DNA of 59,213 nucleotides, from positions 1 to 59,213 of IMG/VR virus record IMGVR_UViG_3300012894_000001; one strand, written 5' to 3'. A program made the position numbers and the translations under genes. Shown here in pieces: positions 11,733 to 41,578 of this stretch. Every line of letters starts with the position of its first letter. Position 1 is the stretch's first letter. The notes below the pieces were generated by a model. That model did not search any database, had not been told where the DNA came from, and saw only the letters and a list, made by a program, of their open reading frames with translations. The stretch is from a virus. Lineage: Duplodnaviria > Caudoviricetes.

Positions 11733-11950
11733 CCTCGGCGGGCCGGGGCGCAGGCGAGAGCGGGTGTGAGGCGAAGTCTGCGCTGTCAGGCAACTACACG
11801 CACGCCCACGGTGAAGCCGAGCGCCGCCTGAAGACCGGTGCCCGTCAAGGTCGCTGCCTGACGTGCAAGCTGTGGCGCTGGGCAGACGAACCCTGCCCGC
11901 TGGCGACGTTTGCGAAAGGCAAGGCTCCCAAACCTGAGCCTATCCAGTGA
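11729..11950 (+). CDS. Small Cys-containing hypothetical protein, last gene of the early operon
   Basis: GTGA coupling; CLTC motif. Confidence 0.5.
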   Translation: MTSAGRGAGESGCEAKSALSGNYTHAHGEAERRLKTGARQGRCLTCKLWRWADEPCPLATFAKGKAPKPEPIQ

Positions 11951-12021
11951 CCCACCTGCCTTGCCCAGCTATCTAAAAGGCCAGAACTTATACTGCCTAG
12001 TTGTTTTTAGGCCGCATAAAT

Positions 12022-12052
12022 GACAAGAGGCCGACGTATTGTCGGCCCCCCG
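12022..12052 (-). terminator. Hairpin/terminator closing the tRNA-like transcript
   Basis: GGCCGAC-N5-GTCGGCC stem followed by TCTTGTCATTT on the minus strand. Confidence 0.6.
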
Positions 12053-12085
12053 TTGACCTACTATCTGGCTTTCGGCTGGTCTGCC

Positions 12086-12156
12086 GGGGAAACGTTGGAA
12101 TCGAACCAACTCCTAGACGGCGCTGCCGCATCGCTCTCCCAATGAGCTGCTTCCCC
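12086..12156 (-). ncRNA. tRNA-like RNA C (canonical D and T arms, aberrant anticodon arm)
   Basis: GGGGAAG/TTTCCCC acceptor, GCTC-ATTGGGA-GAGC D arm, GTTGG-TTCGATT-CCAAC T arm; no 5-bp stem with 7-nt anticodon loop. Confidence 0.75.
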
Positions 12157-12180
12157 ATTTCGGGCCATCTTATTAAGCGC

Positions 12181-12250
12181 TGGCCTTCCCAGGTGGGGTA
12201 TCACTCCCCCACATCGCGCTGCGCAGCTCTCGCGTCTTGATACGCAGGCC
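12181..12250 (-). ncRNA. Putative cloverleaf-like structured RNA B
   Basis: GGCCT/AGGCC closing stem ending in CCA; internal hairpins GCGT/ACGC, GCTG/CAGC and GTGGGG/CCCCAC. Confidence 0.45.
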
Positions 12251-12263
12251 CTGCACGGGCATC

Positions 12264-12336
12264 TGGTCGCTCCGCCCGGAATCAAACCGGAATTACCAAC
12301 TTTATCGCTGGCGTCTTTTCATTAAACGACAGAACT
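12264..12336 (-). ncRNA. tRNA-like RNA A (73 nt, encoded CCA, 6-nt anticodon loop)
   Basis: AGTTCTG TC GTTT AATGAAA AGAC G CCAGC GATAAA GTTGG TAAT TCCGG TTTGATT CCGGG CGGAGCG ACCA folds as a cloverleaf. Confidence 0.8.
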
Positions 12337-12374
12337 GTTGTCAAGAAGCGGGTCGAGCCCGCCCCCTTCCTAAG

Positions 12375-12404
12375 AGTTTAACCCTTTAGACGTCTGGACG
12401 TCTA
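12375..12404 (-). promoter_or_regulatory. Putative promoter for the tRNA-like array, overlapping partition repeats
   Basis: TAGACG-N18-TAAACT on the minus strand; AGACGTCT-GGACGTCT repeats cover the -35 element. Confidence 0.5.
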
Positions 12405-12656
12405 GCTGTTCAACCATTCAGACAGCAGCCGGTTCATGAGCGTGCTCAGGTCTTCATCCGTGCCCAACAGCTGCCGCTGGGCGTTGAGCTTTACATCTTT
12501 CTGCAGATAGAGCGTGGTCTTTTCAAAGGCAGCGTTGCTGGATTTCCCGCCCCGGCCGCTTGGCTGTTCAGGCGTCTGAACGTCTGGACGGCTGGGCGTC
12601 TCGCTTGCTTTTTCCCTGAAGTTGCTGACCATGCCGAACCGACTGGGCTTGCTCAC
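12402..12656 (-). CDS. Small ParG-like (ribbon-helix-helix) partition adaptor
   Basis: Directly downstream of ParA; flexible N-terminus plus KTTLYLQKDV..LSTLMNRLLSEWL RHH-like C-terminus. Confidence 0.75.
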   Translation of the reverse strand: MSKPSRFGMVSNFREKASETPSRPDVQTPEQPSGRGGKSSNAAFEKTTLYLQKDVKLNAQRQLLGTDEDLSTLMNRLLSEWLNS

Positions 12657-13260
12657 CGGGCCGCCTCGGCAAAGGCCATCATTTCCCGCGTGGCGCTTTC
12701 GTAGTCCATGCCCGCAATCCGGGCGCGGATGTTCTTCAGGTTCCCCACCGTGACGCCCTGGGCAGACGCATCTTCAAACGCCTCGCTGCGCCTGATCTGG
12801 CTTTCCAGAACAGGGACGCCCAGCCCGGTCAGATAGTCCCGCGCCGCCTCCGCTTTGGTCGACGGGTGAGGTGGGACGATGGTCAGCAGCACCCTGAAAG
12901 CCCGCCCGCTCTTTCGCAGCACGTCCGCCGTCTCCAGCACTGCGCTCAGGGCCAGGGTGGACGGCGGGGAAGGCAAGATGACCAGATCGCTCTGGTGTGC
13001 CAGGTCGGTGATGTCCCCGTCTGCCAACCCGCCCTCGGTGTCGATCACCACATGCGCGAAGTCCTGGCTGGCCTGCCCCGCCTCGCTCTCAGGGAGCACC
13101 GTGAAGGGCAGTAGTCCCGCGCTCGCCCAGAGTGTCGCGCTGCGGGTATCGTCCCCGTCTATGAGCAGCGTGGGGCCACGGCGGGCTAGGTAGCTGGCGA
13201 CGTGTACGGCTGAGGTCGTCTTACTGACGCCCCTTTTTTACTGATAAACGACAAGATCAT
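12653..13260 (-). pseudogene. parA: ParA/ParF-type partition ATPase with a 1-nt frameshift in the Walker A motif
   Basis: ATG 13260 gives MILSFISKKG; the other frame continues GVSKTTSAVHVA..LLIDGD..HVVIDTEG; one G is missing in the A6G4 run at 13230-13239. Confidence 0.85.
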
Positions 13261-13267
13261 GCCGGGA

Positions 13268-13326
13268 ATCATGCGGCTAAATGTCTGAGAGTTCAAGCGT
13301 TCAGACGTCTAAACGTCTCGACGGCT
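13268..13326. promoter_or_regulatory. parA leaderless promoter and tandem 8-bp centromere/operator-like repeats
   Basis: Minus strand TTGAAC-N17-CATGAT-N7-ATG; tandem AAGCGTTC AGACGTCT AAACGTCT CGACGGCT; the same unit occurs near 12388-12403 and 12571-12601. Confidence 0.7.
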
Positions 13327-13363
13327 GCGGCTTGGAGGATAGTTACCGGACTACTCGGCTGAT

Positions 13364-13642
13364 TTGCCCTACCCTGTCCCAGTGCGCCCTTTCTACTCTC
13401 CGGTCGAAGCCGCCGGTCTCCTCGCTGACGCCTGGGCCGCCGATAGGGGAGAGGAGGGGTGGGTCGATCCGGTCACGCTAGAAGCGCTGGCGTGGTCTCT
13501 CGATGCTGACCCGGAGTATCTGGAGGAGACGTGGCAGGCGTGGGCGGACGAGCTGGAGGCGCAGGGGTATACACCGACTGAGCTGGACGAGGCGCGGTAC
13601 TGGCTCGACGTGGTGGTGATCGGGGGAATAGGGGAGAGCTGA
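13364..13642 (+). CDS. Small, highly acidic, Trp-rich protein
   Basis: About 20 D/E versus 3 R and no K in 92 aa; divergent from parA. Confidence 0.65.
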   Translation: MPYPVPVRPFYSPVEAAGLLADAWAADRGEEGWVDPVTLEALAWSLDADPEYLEETWQAWADELEAQGYTPTELDEARYWLDVVVIGGIGES

Positions 13643-14787: not shown

Positions 14788-15548
14788 AACTTCCTCCTGT
14801 TCTCGATGGCGAAGCCGACCAGCTCGCCCGTCTGTTTGTTCTTGACCAGGCTGACCCGGTCGTACCCCTGGGCGTTCTTGAGCCGCAGAATCACCTGTTC
14901 TTCAGAGGCAGGCTTGACCACGGCGGGCGCAGGTTGAGCGACCGGCGGCGGCACCGTTACCCGTTCGGCCCGGTCTTGCCACTCGGCGAGCTTCGTGCCG
15001 TTGATCGGGTCGGTCCACTGGAAGTGCATGCCGTCGGCGTACGCACCCGTCCAGCGCCCACCCCAGGTCCAGCCGTACTCCTCGAACACCTGCACCACGT
15101 CCCGGTTGATCTGCATCCGCTCGAGCGGCACGCCGTACCCGTTCCAGGCCGCGTCGAGGTCGATGGCCGCCCCGAAGGCGTGCACGCTCAGTGCCCGGGC
15201 CGGGTCGTGGCCCATGTGGCGGCCCACGAAGGCGCCGTTGTAGGTCTTGAGCTTGCTGGCCAGGCCGCGCCGGACCACCTCGGCCCAGGTGGCAATCAGC
15301 ACCGGCGCGACCAGGCGGTGCAGGGTGATGCTCTTGACCACCACGCCGGGGTAGGCGGGCCAGCCGGGCAGGCTGCTGATCGGGACGCGCACCAGGTTGG
15401 CAGCGGCCCAGGACGGTGAGGGGTCGAAGTTGCCGCCGCCGGTCTCGCGGGCGCCGGGGCCCTTCGGGTTACCGTAGGCGGCCATGAGCTGCGCGGTAGT
15501 CTCACCGGCCGGGCGGGCGCGGATGGCCGCAGCGATGTCTAGGGTCAT
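14784..15548 (-). CDS. Endolysin, M15-family Zn peptidase
   Basis: SVHAFGAAIDLD and WGGRW..DGMHFQ motifs; start at MTLDIAAA (ATGA overlap). Confidence 0.9.
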   Translation of the reverse strand: MTLDIAAAIRARPAGETTAQLMAAYGNPKGPGARETGGGNFDPSPSWAAANLVRVPISSLPGWPAYPGVVVKSITLHRLVAPVLIATWAEVVRRGLASKLKTYNGAFVGRHMGHDPARALSVHAFGAAIDLDAAWNGYGVPLERMQINRDVVQVFEEYGWTWGGRWTGAYADGMHFQWTDPINGTKLAEWQDRAERVTVPPPVAQPAPAVVKPASEEQVILRLKNAQGYDRVSLVKNKQTGELVGFAIENRRKL

Positions 15549-16078
15549 GCTTTCCACCTCTCGAGTTCCTTCTCGGCCGTGTGCGCCCTGGCCTCGGCCA
15601 CCTCCGCCCGGACCCGGTACTCGGCCAGGGTGTCCCAGATGGTCGGTCGCGTGCACAGCCGCCACGTCAGCACGATGGTCGCCAACTCGGCCAGCAGGAA
15701 GCTGAGCGTCGCCGGGTTGCCGGTGTAGACGTTCCGCGCGAAGTTCATCATCAGCGCCGTCGCCACCACCACCCAGGCGGCCCGCGTCTGCCACGGGGCC
15801 TCACGCACGTACCAGAGCGCGTAGGCGATGATCAGTGCCGGCACCCAGCGGCCGATCACCAGCAGCAGCCCGCTCACGCTGGTGTGCAGCTCCGGGATGA
15901 TCTGAGTCGACCCGATCACCGTGTCGCCGATGTCGGCCAGCACCGCCGGTACGAAGGCGCCCAGCAGGATCACTCCGCCCAGGAACACCACCAGCAGCGC
16001 GTCCCCCCACGTCCAGGCCGGGCCGCGCCGGGCGTGCGCGCGCTCCACGAGCCGTTCAGCTTGTTTTGTTGCCATCAT
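15545..16078 (-). CDS. Multi-TM membrane protein (lysis module)
   Basis: About four hydrophobic segments and a C-terminal coiled coil. Confidence 0.7.
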   Translation of the reverse strand: MMATKQAERLVERAHARRGPAWTWGDALLVVFLGGVILLGAFVPAVLADIGDTVIGSTQIIPELHTSVSGLLLVIGRWVPALIIAYALWYVREAPWQTRAAWVVVATALMMNFARNVYTGNPATLSFLLAELATIVLTWRLCTRPTIWDTLAEYRVRAEVAEARAHTAEKELERWKA

Positions 16079-16430
16079 TCGGACCCTCCTTTTTCGTGAG
16101 TGAGACGCCATATTTGCCACTGATCAGGCCTGCCGCGAAGCTCCAGAGCGGCGGGCCGATGGAGCCGTAGACCATCGCCAGCCCCATCGCCGCCTTGATC
16201 TGGAGAGGCTTGATGCTGTCCTGGATCAGCAGCAGCGAGACGGCCGCCAGCGTGCCGTACAGGGTGTCTCGCATCACCTCGCCGAGCGTGGTCGGCACCT
16301 GCCCGGCGCGGCGCAGGTTGTCGCGTTCCTTGCTGGCCCGGAGCCAGCTGACCACCAGGGAGAGCACCACGCTCACGGTCAACAGGACGATGAAGCGCAG
16401 CCCGATCAGTTCCTGCAGCTCTGGTGTCAT
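16056..16430 (-). CDS. Membrane protein, holin-like
   Basis: About three hydrophobic segments; upstream of the endolysin. Confidence 0.65.
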   Translation of the reverse strand: MTPELQELIGLRFIVLLTVSVVLSLVVSWLRASKERDNLRRAGQVPTTLGEVMRDTLYGTLAAVSLLLIQDSIKPLQIKAAMGLAMVYGSIGPPLWSFAAGLISGKYGVSLTKKEGPNDGNKTS

Positions 16431-16756
16431 TCCACCCCCTCGGGGACGCGCCACCAGCGGCCGGAGCGGTCCTGCCATTCGACCCACCACCAGCTCGGGG
16501 TCTCCCGGATCAGTGCGCGGTTGGGGAACAACTCTTCGCGGCCGGGCGGGTTGTCGGGGAGGGAGCCGCCGAGCAGGGAGGCGTAGCGGACGTAGGCCAC
16601 ACCCTTGCAGCCGGGGCGCTGGCGAATCTCCAGGCGCTTGTCGAGCAGGTTTCCGGGCGTGGCAGTGACGGTAACCCGGCAGAGGGTGGGGGCAGGAGGC
16701 GAGAGGGAAGCGGACGCGGCCCCGGACAGCAGGGCCGCGAGCAAGACATGTTTCAT
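16427..16756 (-). CDS. Secreted hypothetical protein
   Basis: MKHVLLAALLSGAASA signal peptide; GGAGAG SD. Confidence 0.7.
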   Translation of the reverse strand: MKHVLLAALLSGAASASLSPPAPTLCRVTVTATPGNLLDKRLEIRQRPGCKGVAYVRYASLLGGSLPDNPPGREELFPNRALIRETPSWWWVEWQDRSGRWWRVPEGVE

Positions 16757-16769
16757 GGACTCTCCAGGG

Positions 16770-18362
16770 TCAGGCGGCGTCGGTGCTGATCTTCAGGTCG
16801 AGGAAGGAGGTGGCGGCCGTCAGGCCGATGACCGTGCCTGCTGCCTTGAACAGCTGGATGCGTGCCGCTCTGGCGGCATCCGCCTCGGCCAGCCCAGCGA
16901 GCGGGGACGCGGGGACATTCCGCTGGATGTTGTTCGCGGTGGTCAGCCCGGTGGTAGTCGGCGTCCAGATCGGCGTGTAGCCCTTCCGGTAGGTGCCGCT
17001 CTTGTCGAACACGTAGTAGCCGACGTCCGAGTTGGTGATGAAGTTGTCGTGGTACAGGGAGGCGTCCGAGTTGGTCAGGTTCCAGCTCTGCAGTCCACCA
17101 CCTTCCTGCCCGTTGCCGTCCGCCCCGCTCTGGGAGGCCCAGGCCAGCTTGCTGTAGCCACCAGGCGCATTGCTCCGGATCACGCCGGCGCTGACGACGA
17201 TGATGTTGTCGAGCCCCTGATGGTGCCCAGCCTGAATCGCCGCGCCGTAGTTTGCGGTCGTGACGATGGTCACGGACTGCATCACGAAGCCCTGCGACAC
17301 CGTCGTCTCCGTGAGCCCCGTGAAGCCGATCTGGTCGCCCATCAGTCCGCCCGTGCCGGAGTAGGGAATGGTGTTACCGTTGCTGTCCCGACCGAACCAT
17401 ACCGTTGTCCCGCCGCTGGCGACGAACAGGGGGTCATACGGCAGGGCGTTCTCGACCAGCCCGCGCCGGAAGTACATCGTCTCGCCTGACTTGCAGTAAC
17501 TGTTGTAGACGCTGAGAGCATCCTCGAAGTAGGCCCCGTACACGGGGTCGTTCCGAAGGATGAAGTCCTCGCAATACGAGTTGTTGCCGGGAAAGCTCTT
17601 GCAGTTCTGGAGCTGAATGTAGTTCGCGACGAGGTGGTTGGTGGTCCAGTTGCCGCTCGCGTCCACCTGCCGGCCGTCGACGTTGTACTTGCCCCACTTC
17701 GAGATGCGCACACCACCGGTGGAGAGGCCGCTCAGCGCGTTGGAATTGAAGTCGGCCATCAGGGTGCCGCGCGTGCCGTGCGACTCGCAGTTCACCACCT
17801 CGAGATTCGCCACCTTCTCGCCGGCGATGTCATGGGCCGGCAGGGCGTTGGCGAACCCTGCCGGTGGTTTGCCAGACAGGAACAGGGTTTCTTCGAACCG
17901 GAGATTTGCGTTGGTCCCGAGGTACACCATGCCGGTCTGCTGGCTGGCGTTCAGGCCCCACCCGAAGAGATTGCTCAGGTAGACGGTGACGGCCAGGGTC
18001 GTGAGGAACTTGACGGCCGGCACCCCGGGGACGGTGCTCCGCAGGTTGCCGAGGCTGATGCGGTACCGTCCATTCACCATCGGGCCATACGTTCCAGCGG
18101 TCAGGTCGGCGTCCGTGATGACGAGTGAGGTGGTCCGGTCCGTCCAGCCGATCAGGTTCGCAAGCCTGTTCCGCAGGGTGATCAGGTTCAGACCGTCAAT
18201 CAGGAAGGCCGGAAGAATCCGCCCGTTGGCCCCCTCGGCGAGCGCGAGGCTGACCGAGGTGGTCACCACCAGGGCGGCGCCGTCCAGTCGGTACTTGGTG
18301 GCCGGGTTGTCCGCGAGCACCACCAGGCCTTTGGCGTCGATCGTGACGTAGCGGGCCATCAC
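16770..18362 (-). CDS. Tail-associated beta-helix-like protein (putative receptor-binding/depolymerase)
   Basis: G/N/T/S-rich 530 aa protein in the fibre cluster. Confidence 0.65.
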   Translation of the reverse strand: MMARYVTIDAKGLVVLADNPATKYRLDGAALVVTTSVSLALAEGANGRILPAFLIDGLNLITLRNRLANLIGWTDRTTSLVITDADLTAGTYGPMVNGRYRISLGNLRSTVPGVPAVKFLTTLAVTVYLSNLFGWGLNASQQTGMVYLGTNANLRFEETLFLSGKPPAGFANALPAHDIAGEKVANLEVVNCESHGTRGTLMADFNSNALSGLSTGGVRISKWGKYNVDGRQVDASGNWTTNHLVANYIQLQNCKSFPGNNSYCEDFILRNDPVYGAYFEDALSVYNSYCKSGETMYFRRGLVENALPYDPLFVASGGTTVWFGRDSNGNTIPYSGTGGLMGDQIGFTGLTETTVSQGFVMQSVTIVTTANYGAAIQAGHHQGLDNIIVVSAGVIRSNAPGGYSKLAWASQSGADGNGQEGGGLQSWNLTNSDASLYHDNFITNSDVGYYVFDKSGTYRKGYTPIWTPTTTGLTTANNIQRNVPASPLAGLAEADAARAARIQLFKAAGTVIGLTAATSFLDLKISTDAA

Positions 18363-29071: not shown

Positions 29072-29244
29072 TGCACAGCCTTCAGGCTCTTGAGTGCAGA
29101 TCGCTGAGCAATCGAGAGCCCACTCTCAGATTCTTCTCGCTCCAACAGGTTCAGCAACGCTCTCACAGCATTCGGGGAAAGCTCAAGGACGACAACGGGA
29201 ACTGTTATTAAAAAACTACCGGTAAAATATAGTCTTCCCTTCAT
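29068..29244 (-). CDS. Small hypothetical protein
   Basis: ATGA overlap with the HNH gene stop. Confidence 0.5.
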   Translation of the reverse strand: MKGRLYFTGSFLITVPVVVLELSPNAVRALLNLLEREESESGLSIAQRSALKSLKAVQ

Positions 29245-30011
29245 TTCTTGACTGATTCTCTGTAAACCTTGAACTCTTGCGGGGTTCGAGCCCATTTTGA
29301 AGCGTTACAACTTCGGCAAGCTAAACATAGGTTCGCAGGCCAATTTGTACCACCCCTCGAAAGTGGGATTTTATGCTCAACTTCTCCCATCCCATTTAAT
29401 AATGCGTGACAGTAAAAACATGCATCACCCTGAAGAATACGTTTTTGCTGTAGATCATCTTTGTTAAACCTGCCTGAGGCAGATGCCACCCTAGCTTTAC
29501 GCATTGTATTAAATACAACGCGTCGTTTTTTATAACAAGTTTGACATATGCTAGCAGGATTTGCTCTAGATGGTTGCTTGTACATCTCATCAAACGTTTT
29601 ATGCTCTTCGCAATGTCTGCAGTATTTCTTTCCGGGTTGAAGATCAAGATGAAGTTTACGTCTAGACCGATTAGGATTTTTAATATCCGCACGGCGTCTT
29701 GCCTTTTTTGCACATTTTTCATTGTGGCACTTGCGACAAATGCTGCTTCTCAATATGCGGCCCCATCGTAAATGCATATCTTGTAGTAAAGTTAGCTTAT
29801 TACAAGATATGCAGAATCGAAATCCTTCAGGTGCAGTTTTTTGAGGCTCTCTTTTCAGCCTTTCAGGATTTTTTTTACCCTGGCGTCGCACTCGTCGGAT
29901 AGCAGCCTTGAGTTTCCGGCATTTCTCGCAGTCCTGCGTAGGCCTCCCGCGTCCATTCCAGACAATAGCCGTACCGCACTGGCATGTGCGCTCTAACTCC
30001 CCCCTACTCAC
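29241..30011 (-). CDS. HNH endonuclease with N-terminal Zn-finger repeats
   Basis: Multiple CxxC pairs; CFYC..EVEHKIPLSRGGTNWPANLCLACRSCNASK; AT-rich DNA. Confidence 0.9.
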   Translation of the reverse strand: MSRGELERTCQCGTAIVWNGRGRPTQDCEKCRKLKAAIRRVRRQGKKNPERLKREPQKTAPEGFRFCISCNKLTLLQDMHLRWGRILRSSICRKCHNEKCAKKARRRADIKNPNRSRRKLHLDLQPGKKYCRHCEEHKTFDEMYKQPSRANPASICQTCYKKRRVVFNTMRKARVASASGRFNKDDLQQKRILQGDACFYCHALLNGMGEVEHKIPLSRGGTNWPANLCLACRSCNASKWARTPQEFKVYRESVKK

Positions 30012-30330
30012 GCCTGCACCCCTCTTCAAAGCGGGCTGGGCGGTATTCCCAGGGCATCCGGTCAGACTTAGCCCGGTTGCAGTCGGGGCAGGCAATGACG
30101 AGGTTGATCGCATAGTTACTGCCTCCCCTGCTGAGCGGAATGAAGTGGTCCACCTGGAATTTGTTCGGGCCGAAGAAATCGAGCTTGCAGTAACAGTAGT
30201 GGCAGAGGTTGTTTTGCCTGCCGAGCCTTATCATCACGTCCCACTTGTCGAAGGTGCCGACCGCGCCGACTTTCTCAGCGCGGCGGCGGTGGGTGGACCT
30301 GATCTTGTCCCCACCCCGCCGGCCCTTCAT
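30004..30330 (-). CDS. Small HNH endonuclease
   Basis: CHYC..VDHFIPLSRGGSNYAINLVIACPDCNRAK. Confidence 0.9.
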   Translation of the reverse strand: MKGRRGGDKIRSTHRRRAEKVGAVGTFDKWDVMIRLGRQNNLCHYCYCKLDFFGPNKFQVDHFIPLSRGGSNYAINLVIACPDCNRAKSDRMPWEYRPARFEEGCRRE

Positions 30331-30626
30331 CAGTGAACCTTCCCGCCGAACCGCTCTTCCAGTTGAGCACCGACCCGGTTCATCTGCTCCCGAAGGTTGA
30401 TCTTCGAGCTGTACTTGCCGTCCTCCCAGGTGAGCAGCCATGCCAGGGCGGCCTGTTCGAGCAGCAGTTCGAGGTGATCGAAGGCGGCGTAGTGGAGGGC
30501 GGTGTGCTTCATGCACTTCGGGCAGAAGTATTCCGGCTCACCGTCGTTCATCGAGAGCACGCCGTTTGGCACGTTGCAGCCGTCGCACTTTCCGATGATG
30601 CTGCGGGGGAAGTTACTCGGCTGCAT
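30330..30626 (-). CDS. Zn-finger hypothetical protein
   Basis: GGGAGG SD before MQPS; CDGC..CPKC. Confidence 0.65.
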   Translation of the reverse strand: MQPSNFPRSIIGKCDGCNVPNGVLSMNDGEPEYFCPKCMKHTALHYAAFDHLELLLEQAALAWLLTWEDGKYSSKINLREQMNRVGAQLEERFGGKVH

Positions 30627-41026: not shown

Positions 41027-41578
41027 TTAAAAATTTGTTGACGCAAAACTACCGAATTTTTCTATCGCGGCTTTGTCGTATGCCAAAGCCGCTTCTAAAG
41101 CAGTCGGAAAGAATCCAATATGTACTTGCGTTCCATTGACTCGAATGTATGCACGGTACTTTTCGGCTTTCCTATTTTCACGGTATGTGACGCCCTTAAA
41201 CCCCGATTTGCTATCCACACGCAATACAGCGTTTCTTTGGTTGTCTTGGTTACTACAGACTCTCAAATTACAGATGCGATTATCCAGCTTATCGTGATTT
41301 ATGTGGTCAACAGAATCATTCTCAGAGGGTGAAAGAATTAAGCGATGCATTCGGATGTTGAATGCATGTATTTCTTCGCCCTTGGGAATTACTCTTTTCC
41401 CTCCCAAAAAGACTCTGGGATACCAACAAGCGGCATAACCACCAGTGAAAGCCCATGTGTATTGGGAGAGCAGATCGAACTTATCTTCATCTACTACAGC
41501 AAATCTCCCACGACCTTTCTTGCCGCTGAGAGGAATGAGTCGAGCCCCATCTGGACAAATAAAATCGCTCACAGGCAT
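41027..41578 (-). CDS. HNH-AP2 homing endonuclease
   Basis: MHRLIL..VDHINHDKLDNRICNLR..N..N plus SGFKGV..IGFF.TALEAALAYDKAA..FG AP2 domain; AT-rich. Confidence 0.93.
   Translation of the reverse strand: MPVSDFICPDGARLIPLSGKKGRGRFAVVDEDKFDLLSQYTWAFTGGYAACWYPRVFLGGKRVIPKGEEIHAFNIRMHRLILSPSENDSVDHINHDKLDNRICNLRVCSNQDNQRNAVLRVDSKSGFKGVTYRENRKAEKYRAYIRVNGTQVHIGFFPTALEAALAYDKAAIEKFGSFASTNF

Follow-up and report, generated by a model that had tools for sequence, protein, structure and literature searches.

A candidate small-RNA cassette of non-decoding tRNA-shaped units and a predicted pseudoknot RNA in a likely Deinococcus phage

The virus record IMGVR_UViG_3300012894_000001 of IMG/VR (59,213 nucleotides, hereafter the window) is a complete 59.2-kb genome with direct terminal repeats. 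Between a run of plus-strand genes ending at position 11950 and a minus-strand par operon ending at 12402 lies a gap that an earlier note, made from the DNA letters alone, had called gene-free; it holds no open reading frame (ORF) of 80 or more amino acids (aa). This gap carries three small RNA units on the minus strand. Two of them, RNA A (12264..12336) and RNA C (12086..12156), are real tRNA-shaped units without a usable anticodon loop. RNA B, situated between them, is the most conserved piece of the cassette and is predicted to fold into a pseudoknot. In the explanation that we prefer, and hold with about even confidence, the gap contains a processed small-RNA cassette in a swappable slot, in which tRNA bodies would serve as cutting and stability signals and RNA B would be the likely payload. 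The kind is known in outline from t-elements, T4 RNA C and D, and Y RNAs. What is new is the predicted pseudoknot of RNA B, the constant way in which it is coupled to tRNA bodies that are themselves interchangeable, and an overlap with Deinococcus rsr RNA arrays. Because tRNA finders and Rfam score RNA A and RNA C below their thresholds and RNA B belongs to no Rfam family, this layer of phage accessory genes goes unannotated. The cassette offers small, cloneable RNAs, in a host genus that is harmless, for asking what non-decoding tRNA-like RNAs of phages do, among them a compact conserved fold without a catalogued family. It also bears on a second question, that of phage RNAs directed against the Ro60/Y RNA and tRNA-damage pathways, which were first described in Deinococcus.

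tRNA-shaped units without a usable anticodon loop

The earlier note had proposed three tandem cloverleaves, of which A and C were borne out by a cloverleaf descriptor, whereas neither it nor ARAGORN supported B. The descriptor was relaxed to allow anticodon loops of 3-9 nucleotides (nt) and any base at position 56. On both strands of the window A and C were its sole matches, and none of 5000 dinucleotide shuffles of the gap gave one or more. In a control on the host it found 24 tRNAs, all 24 with a 7-nt U33 loop and none with U56. With default settings ARAGORN called no tRNA gene and no tmRNA in the window. The Rfam tRNA model matched only RNA C, at 27 bits (cut-off 29), and RNA C scored 97.7 in ARAGORN against a threshold of 100. 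An ARAGORN score of at least 97.6 was reached in 2 of 1000 gap shuffles. Rfam gave no tmRNA match either, and RNA A has U3:G70 in place of the G3:U70 of tmRNA. No antisense target of the cassette was found in the window (best self-match, E 0.063).

RNA A is a complete tRNA-shaped unit, and every anatomical detail reported for it earlier was seen again: four arms, an encoded CCA, a 6-nt anticodon loop (GAUAAA), an A1xG72 mismatch, U8/A14, A15/U48 and an A19/U56 elbow. It keeps six of seven acceptor pairs and all pairs of the D stem (4/4), anticodon stem (5/5) and T stem (5/5). Pair probabilities of the cloverleaf are 0.55-1.0, with one exception at 0.15. RNA A has no Rfam match at E up to 10. 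Its loop is not the 7-nt Y32-U33 loop of a decoding tRNA, and a sequencing error was considered as the origin of this loop, but no single inserted base restores Y32-U33. The elbow had been taken as evidence for mimicry or selection, an argument that fails on comparison with other phages. A pattern for A19/U56, selective for the elbow and not for the loop, matched 100 viral loci; 14 of these hold such cloverleaves, 15 of them distinct, and 14 of the 15 have canonical 7-nt loops. Because the same elbow occurs in phage tRNAs with canonical loops, that of RNA A was likely inherited from a normal phage tRNA.

RNA C has normal D and T arms, as described before, together with a fully paired 8-bp acceptor and one connector base in place of U8-N9; it thus has no U8, and it encodes no CCA. 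The accompanying claim that its anticodon arm cannot form a 5-bp stem with a 7-nt loop was too strict. Four of the five stem pairs and a 7-nt loop (GCAGCGC, without Y32/U33) can be drawn, yet the arm closed to a 3-nt loop is predicted to be lower in energy (-29.0 versus -23.2 kcal/mol). The first 25 nt of RNA C are 84% identical to a unit that lies downstream of RNA B in the Deinococcus genome G081.

RNA B, the units before it and the exchangeable slot

A BLAST search of the gap against 111 Deinococcus genomes returned three strong matches (E 3e-11 to 4e-6), which fall without exception on the 40-53 bases that open RNA B, and 14 further genomes with short weak matches. A pattern search and a covariance model both led to the same three genomes, G081, G103 and G111, in which the homologs sit among phage genes. 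RNA B had been regarded as a looser cloverleaf ending in CCA. This was not confirmed: neither the descriptor nor ARAGORN at a threshold lowered to 70% gave a call on the minus strand, and the homologs fit a pseudoknot and lack both the third hairpin and the final CCA. In the predicted fold the 5' module (12221..12263), which starts at the G right after the CCA of RNA A, consists of a 3-bp hairpin (S1), a 6-bp covarying helix (S2) joining the loop of S1 to a strand 30 bases downstream, and a 4-bp hairpin (S3) nested within S2. In the alignment 98.1% of cells are paired and four of the six S2 pairs are compensatory, with slid controls at 46% or less and none of 500 shuffles reaching this; since four sequences are few and S2 was chosen from the alignment on which it was scored, with a shuffle control that ignores relatedness, the pseudoknot remains a prediction. 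The 3' module (12176..12220) is a small hairpin common to the homologs by alignment and coordinates. In the window it contains a 20-nt hairpin insert (12212-12193) and lacks the CGAAG that follows in the three homologs.

Neither the window copy of RNA B nor its homologs match an Rfam family. A pattern for the 3' module gave seven matches in 364 Deinococcota genomes, the three known ones and four in apparent coding sequence, with five for the reversed control. The covariance model, with 51 candidates scored per genome, returned 27 further weak matches (at most 29.9 bits); among the 16 that were read, none had a tRNA-like neighbour. In viral contigs two RNA B patterns gave 8 and 24 matches, all in apparent coding sequence, and a third gave none. 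RNA B is also absent from 58 loci around 20 other prophage endolysins, from the plasmid replicon L002 described below and, with filters off, from nine further loci (L392 left out because of its size). Among 50,697 phage and 72,556 plasmid records, a DNA search with the gap found none that matched.

What is constant in front of RNA B is a tRNA end. In all four copies the invariant first G stands, by eye, directly after a T arm and an acceptor 3' strand, which ends in NCCA in three copies and in ACCC in one. In the window this unit is RNA A. In G103 it is a Leu-like body whose anticodon arm is longer by about 20 bases, in G111 an acceptor and T arm joined by 11 bases without D or anticodon arm, and in G081 a Trp-like body with a 4-nt D loop. 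The four units are unrelated in body. Their common part is the top half of a tRNA (T arm and acceptor), the part read by processing enzymes; the anticodon appears to be dispensable. Downstream of RNA B, G081 holds a C-like unit (Rfam 50.2 bits, 6-nt loop), as does the window. Among genes near arrays with RNA B, an Rv2179c-like 3'-5' exoribonuclease gene adjoins in G081 (L074 10262-10843), and an Acb2/Tad1-type sponge gene is near in G111 (L073 10476-10691).

The content of the slot behind the par genes differs between related phages, and the slot is thus exchangeable. In the contig L072 it is filled by a different array of 450 bases, at whose end stand RNA B and a matching terminator. In L002 a short hairpin RNA occupies it, and L396, a second G103 prophage 91% identical to window positions 15545-16779, has a terminator only. 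Searching with ParA gave no relative in viral contigs, one in genome contigs (L002, without array) and 33 metagenome loci. The nine closest of these were read; one is the window itself and none of the other eight has an array, four of them ending before or just after the slot. The endolysin relative L001 carries no array and the 51.5-kb L002 replicon no cloverleaf by the relaxed descriptor.

The cassette is framed by predicted signals. The promoter-like TAGACG-N18-TAAACT of the earlier note is present in its letters, with TAGACG at 12404-12399 and TAAACT at 12380-12375 of the minus strand, but TAGACG as a -35 box was not borne out. It is an AGACGY repeat without a sigma-70 match, and a sigma-70 scan listed no promoter in the gap. 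Such iterons flank the par operon (the stretch 12380..12404 included), with 10 repeats in 12380-13330 versus 1.19 expected, and 7-11 repeats occur in each of five par loci of relatives without RNA array. Because AGACGY is enriched both at this par operon and at array-free par loci, TAGACG is probably a centromere-like partition iteron rather than a -35 box. TAAACT (12375..12380) is kept as a predicted -10 box, absent from the sigma-70 scan, with an identical hexamer at the same place in L002 and the equivalent TATACT in L072. The proposed 5' hairpin is present at 12340..12372 (minus strand, -16.1 kcal/mol); it appears in the centroid fold, and no convincing homolog of it was found. The proposed terminator hairpin is likewise present (12024..12052, minus strand, -21.0 kcal/mol), but its U-tract is imperfect and a terminator scan did not list it; L041 has a counterpart with another stem sequence at the same place. 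Short trailer hairpins lie at 12066..12085 (minus strand), with one match to GNCGAAN0-1G (12076-12069) that is within chance (1 versus 0.37 expected, P about 0.3). A conserved short palindrome (11996..12013, no strand assigned) closes the slot and is near-identical in L041 and in the empty slot of L396.

Proposed processing, selection on shape and competing explanations

Searches with the three homologous arrays uncovered two families of tRNA-bodied units. In the extended-arm family (G103, G018, G029 and G110) 97.1% of alignment cells are paired and 10 of 26 pairs are compensatory, five in the acceptor and three in the inserted arm. Its members (L041 1398-1503, L224, L226 and L229) have Leu/Ser-type bodies with 20-40 extra bases in the anticodon arm, and three of the four end the arm in the same 7-nt loop. 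The C-like family comprises G081, G046, G062, one broken copy and RNA C of the window, which is placed here only via its 25 bases at 84% and its position. Here 87% of cells are paired and 4 of 20 pairs are compensatory, in an alignment that understates pairing because the acceptor of RNA C is off by one column and a degenerate copy is included. Loop size differs among all three intact Deinococcus C-like copies: 6 nt, 7 nt (with C33) and 8 nt. Terminase subunits support a phage context for G018, G110 and G069, and an integrase does so weakly for G062; for G046 and G029 the matches were to families of unknown function only, with 50 of 74 ORFs scanned. Since compensatory changes keep the bodies while the anticodon arm is altered, the sequences indicate that non-decoding tRNA-shaped RNAs in Deinococcus mobile loci are, as a class, under selection for shape. 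In this form the earlier suggestion of such selection stands, by these two families and not by the elbow.

Further elements were noticed in such arrays. A spacer motif of 55 nt, 'D', runs from AGACC through a hairpin to GGGGAAGAA; it stands before tRNA-like units in one rsr array of a host and in five arrays of the phage type (L042 1403-1461, two copies in L043, L198, L209, L226 and L395 1788-1834; no strand assigned). By eye it could form a pseudoknot; it has no Rfam match and is absent from the window. A conserved non-coding element of about 80 bases lies near the start of arrays in G111, G002, G030 and, four times, in G038 (L042 1200-1290; L206, L207, L219, L221, L222 and L211), without an Rfam match among the loci scanned. 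L209 1564-1650 (G069) holds a tRNA-like unit that has a UCA triplet, of the kind that reads opal, but C33; a Ser-like unit whose anticodon arm is expanded precedes it.

What RNase P, RNase Z and the CCA-adding enzyme recognise in a tRNA is its acceptor, T arm and elbow, and the anticodon does not matter to them. For this reason the tRNA-maturing enzymes of the host could cut at RNA A and RNA C. In our preferred explanation one precursor would be transcribed from the TAAACT box (about 12370) to the 3' hairpin (about 12025). RNase P would cut 5' of A and of C and 3'-end processing would act behind A, which would release RNA B with a defined 5' G. The 5'-terminal pseudoknot would likely protect RNA B from 5'-3' decay, A and C would persist as stable uncharged look-alikes, and RNA B, as the likely payload, would act on a host protein during lysogeny. 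The t-elements of plant mitochondria provide a precedent: they are non-decoding and tRNA-like, have a conserved T arm and are cut by RNase P and RNase Z, which sets the ends of the neighbouring RNA (PMC1920247). The present cassette differs in being bacterial and phage-borne and in flanking a small structured RNA instead of an mRNA, and its cutting is a proposal.

Several observations weigh against this explanation. The entire gap folds only modestly better than its shuffles (z -2.35), and the predicted pseudoknot has the narrow basis given above. No close homolog of RNA A was found, so that selection on this unit is argued from its intact stems. The canonical T-stem register of RNA C has a probability of only 0.15, and both RNA C (without U8 and CCA) and the 3' module of RNA B are more degraded in the window than in their homologs. 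The Trp-like unit before RNA B in G081 has a normal 7-nt Trp(CCA) loop, which speaks against a non-decoding nature of every unit, and a second copy of it stands without RNA B (L201). C-like and extended-arm units also occur without RNA B and therefore need a value of their own.

Such a value would be supplied if the tRNA look-alikes were themselves the working product, as decoys of or competitors for host proteins that read the elbow or the CCA end (end-modifying toxins, damaged-tRNA sensors or Ro60/Y RNA repair). We consider this possible, though distinctly less probable than processing with RNA B as payload; the two can coexist, and a decoy role would explain the families conserved in loci without RNA B. 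Consistent with it, the second gene past the G111 array encodes an Acb2/Tad1-type anti-defence protein (Pfam 52.9 bits, cut-off 27), and several lines lead to Ro60. TROVE genes were matched in three of five host genomes tested. Upstream of host rsr in G001, G103 and G111 (L394, L397 and L395) spare tRNAs are arrayed together with tRNA-bodied RNAs that match Y RNA/YrlA weakly, and spacer motif D of the phage arrays recurs in the rsr array of G111. The sister prophage L396 encodes a TROVE protein beside parA, and a GNCGAAG match is found at a fixed place in two of the three RNA B homologs. According to the literature, the motif GNCGAAN0-1G is linked to Rsr binding, and Yrn1 of D. radiodurans has a 6-nt 'anticodon loop', as does RNA A (PMC4201824). 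This motif, however, is enriched in the host rsr arrays (4 versus 0.43, 4 versus 1.05 and 3 versus 0.49 expected) and in none of 10 phage-type arrays, and RNA B of the window lacks it. The complete window genome has no TROVE match, at E up to 10 the gap matches none of the Rfam models for Y RNA, YrlA and Deinococcus Y RNA, and G081 and G046, whose genomes may be incomplete, have no TROVE match. As judged from sequence, phages appear to draw on the same RNA parts as the host rsr locus, because the spacer motif recurs in the G111 rsr array and L396 encodes TROVE. The link to Ro60 and Y RNAs made in the earlier note is in this respect a live one, but with no TROVE gene, no 5' motif and no Rfam match the cassette does not appear to belong to the Y RNA family. 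The second suggestion of the earlier note, decoys for tRNA-targeting toxins, may apply to proteins reading the elbow or CCA and is unlikely for anticodon nucleases. PrrC depends on the sequence of the anticodon, and a stable stem inhibits it (PMC3014915); the altered, closed anticodon loops would therefore be poor bait for such enzymes.

Two side observations concern these loci. In the host rsr arrays tRNA bodies have the anticodon arm replaced by a Y-RNA-like stem, and the G111 array gives 12 sense-strand ARAGORN calls at a lowered threshold. The TROVE/Ro60 protein of L396 (4096-5640, G103:C18; 453 aa) is encoded between lysis genes and parA. Before the gene lie a promoter-like site and two small hairpin RNAs, related to each other and possibly the Y RNAs of this protein, which have no GNCGAAN0-1G match on the sense strand.

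That A and C are decaying remnants of an ordinary phage tRNA cluster, with selection only on RNA B and on the homologous families elsewhere, is in our estimation unlikely. The inherited elbow of RNA A would fit, as would the D arm of RNA C, which is shared by ordinary phage tRNAs with normal loops (8 of 8 distinct ones), the loss of U8 and CCA from RNA C and the clearly broken C-like copies in G081 (L202, L203). Ordinary tRNA clusters are carried by 2 of 20 other Deinococcus prophage regions (L162, L180). In RNA A, however, stems and CCA are kept and the loop is at least two changes away from Y32-U33, which concentrates the damage in the loop; RNA C retains its paired 8-bp acceptor, and all three intact Deinococcus C-like copies have non-canonical, mutually different loops. 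Ordinary phage tRNA clusters, including the anti-defence tRNAs reported in PMC10264068 and PMC11464382, resemble the cassette in the origin of the bodies, the A19:U56 elbow and similar Deinococcus prophage slots, and differ in keeping the decoding 7-nt U33 loop that A and C lack.

It is improbable in our view that RNA B acts as a self-cleaving ribozyme with an undescribed fold that liberates the upstream tRNA-like unit's 3' end, in the manner of theta ribozymes. RNA B is a predicted pseudoknot with a highly conserved core, and its three homologs end in a hairpin followed by CGAA, which we take to resemble the J4/2 strand of HDV. Against this, no consistent P2 helix was found, the CGAA is missing from the window copy, the RNA B sequences gave no hammerhead core and there is no Rfam ribozyme match. 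As in the theta (minimal HDV-like) ribozymes (PMC10879173), with their G1 within 5 nt of a tRNA 3' terminus, a pseudoknotted RNA would start with a G at such an end in a phage, and the invariant G of RNA B directly follows the tRNA-like end in four of four copies. A descriptor of the HDV-like fold, the nested double pseudoknot P1-P2-P3-P1.1 with its catalytic C in J4/2, had no match in any of the four sequences, although this descriptor had no positive control; moreover, the upstream units mostly encode CCA, and the host is not one of the gut Bacteroidota or Bacillota.

We regard as least probable, and indeed as very improbable, that the units are working translation adaptors, either nuclease-resistant tRNAs or frameshift suppressors, possibly for a one-base break in parA that the window shares with L002. 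Among the C-like units one carries a Lys anticodon in a loop of 7 nt and another has a loop of 8 nt, and two studies report phage tRNAs that evade nucleases through altered anticodon loops (PMC10264068, PMC11464382). However, A and C have neither U33 nor an anticodon that fits the parA site, L002 shares the break in a replicon without a descriptor cloverleaf, and units with 20-40 extra arm bases or without the arm cannot decode.

Two further groups of RNAs help to place the cassette. T4 RNA C and RNA D are, according to PMC3014915, likewise small non-tRNA RNAs of a phage tRNA region without an explained role; by this description the present cassette is set apart by having no normal tRNA and a conserved pseudoknot module. 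YrlA and Yrn1 share with it D and T arms derived from tRNA without decoding and occur, according to PMC4201824, in Deinococcus and some phages; the cassette differs in lacking a Ro60 gene, the 5' motif and a Y RNA match in Rfam, and in having its arms in normal tRNA order with a real acceptor end. Our search of the open-access literature yielded no description of the cassette, of RNA B or of the A19-U56 elbow; supplements were outside its scope, and motif tables of phage-RNA surveys could hold RNA B. The C4 RNA of P1 and P7 and the CI RNA of P4 are phage immunity RNAs matured by RNase P; the cassette differs from them in having no Rfam match and no antisense target in the window. A more far-reaching reading, which we put forward as rather doubtful, is that RNA B represents a new class of functional phage RNA, either a self-cleaving ribozyme of undescribed fold or an anti-defence RNA engaging the Ro60/tRNA-repair pathway of the host. 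The cassette would then be a modular counter-defence device of Deinococcus phages, made of RNA only, in which non-decoding tRNA bodies that can be exchanged for one another deliver RNA B.

The phage, its host and the surroundings of the slot

Scanning of 79 ORFs of the window gave matches to terminase, major head, tail sheath, baseplate, endolysin, repressor, antirepressors and a ParA-like protein, and none to an integrase. From these structural, lysis, repressor, antirepressor and ParA-like gene matches the window appears to be a temperate contractile-tailed phage, probably kept as a plasmid. Its host is likely Deinococcus, because of three kinds of relatives: the nearest relative of ParA in the genome collection (86%) is encoded on a 51.5-kb plasmid of D. 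radiomollis (L002), endolysin relatives occur in 23 of 111 Deinococcus genomes, and the Deinococcus contig L072 contains stretches 81-95% identical to the window.

The par operon (12402..13260, minus strand), outside the RNA cassette, comprises parA, matched as ParA-like by PHROG, with homologs 81-84% identical and 81% nucleotide identity with L002, and a small downstream gene, which likely encodes a DNA-binding partner of ParA. A frame break of one base interrupts parA at an A6G4 run within its Walker A region (window 13260-13225 minus; L002 5970-6010). The break is also present in the isolate replicon L002, and not in seven other close metagenome homologs with a visible start. As two independent sequences share it, this suggests programmed slippage or frameshifting more than it does a sequencing error. 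A 92-aa ORF of no known family (13364-13642, plus strand) is 88% identical in the sister phage L072 and has three weaker copies in G001. Genes for HNH and GIY-YIG endonucleases are found at 29241-30516, 41027-41578 and 1192-2121 of the window, some of them amid structural genes in A+T-richer DNA.

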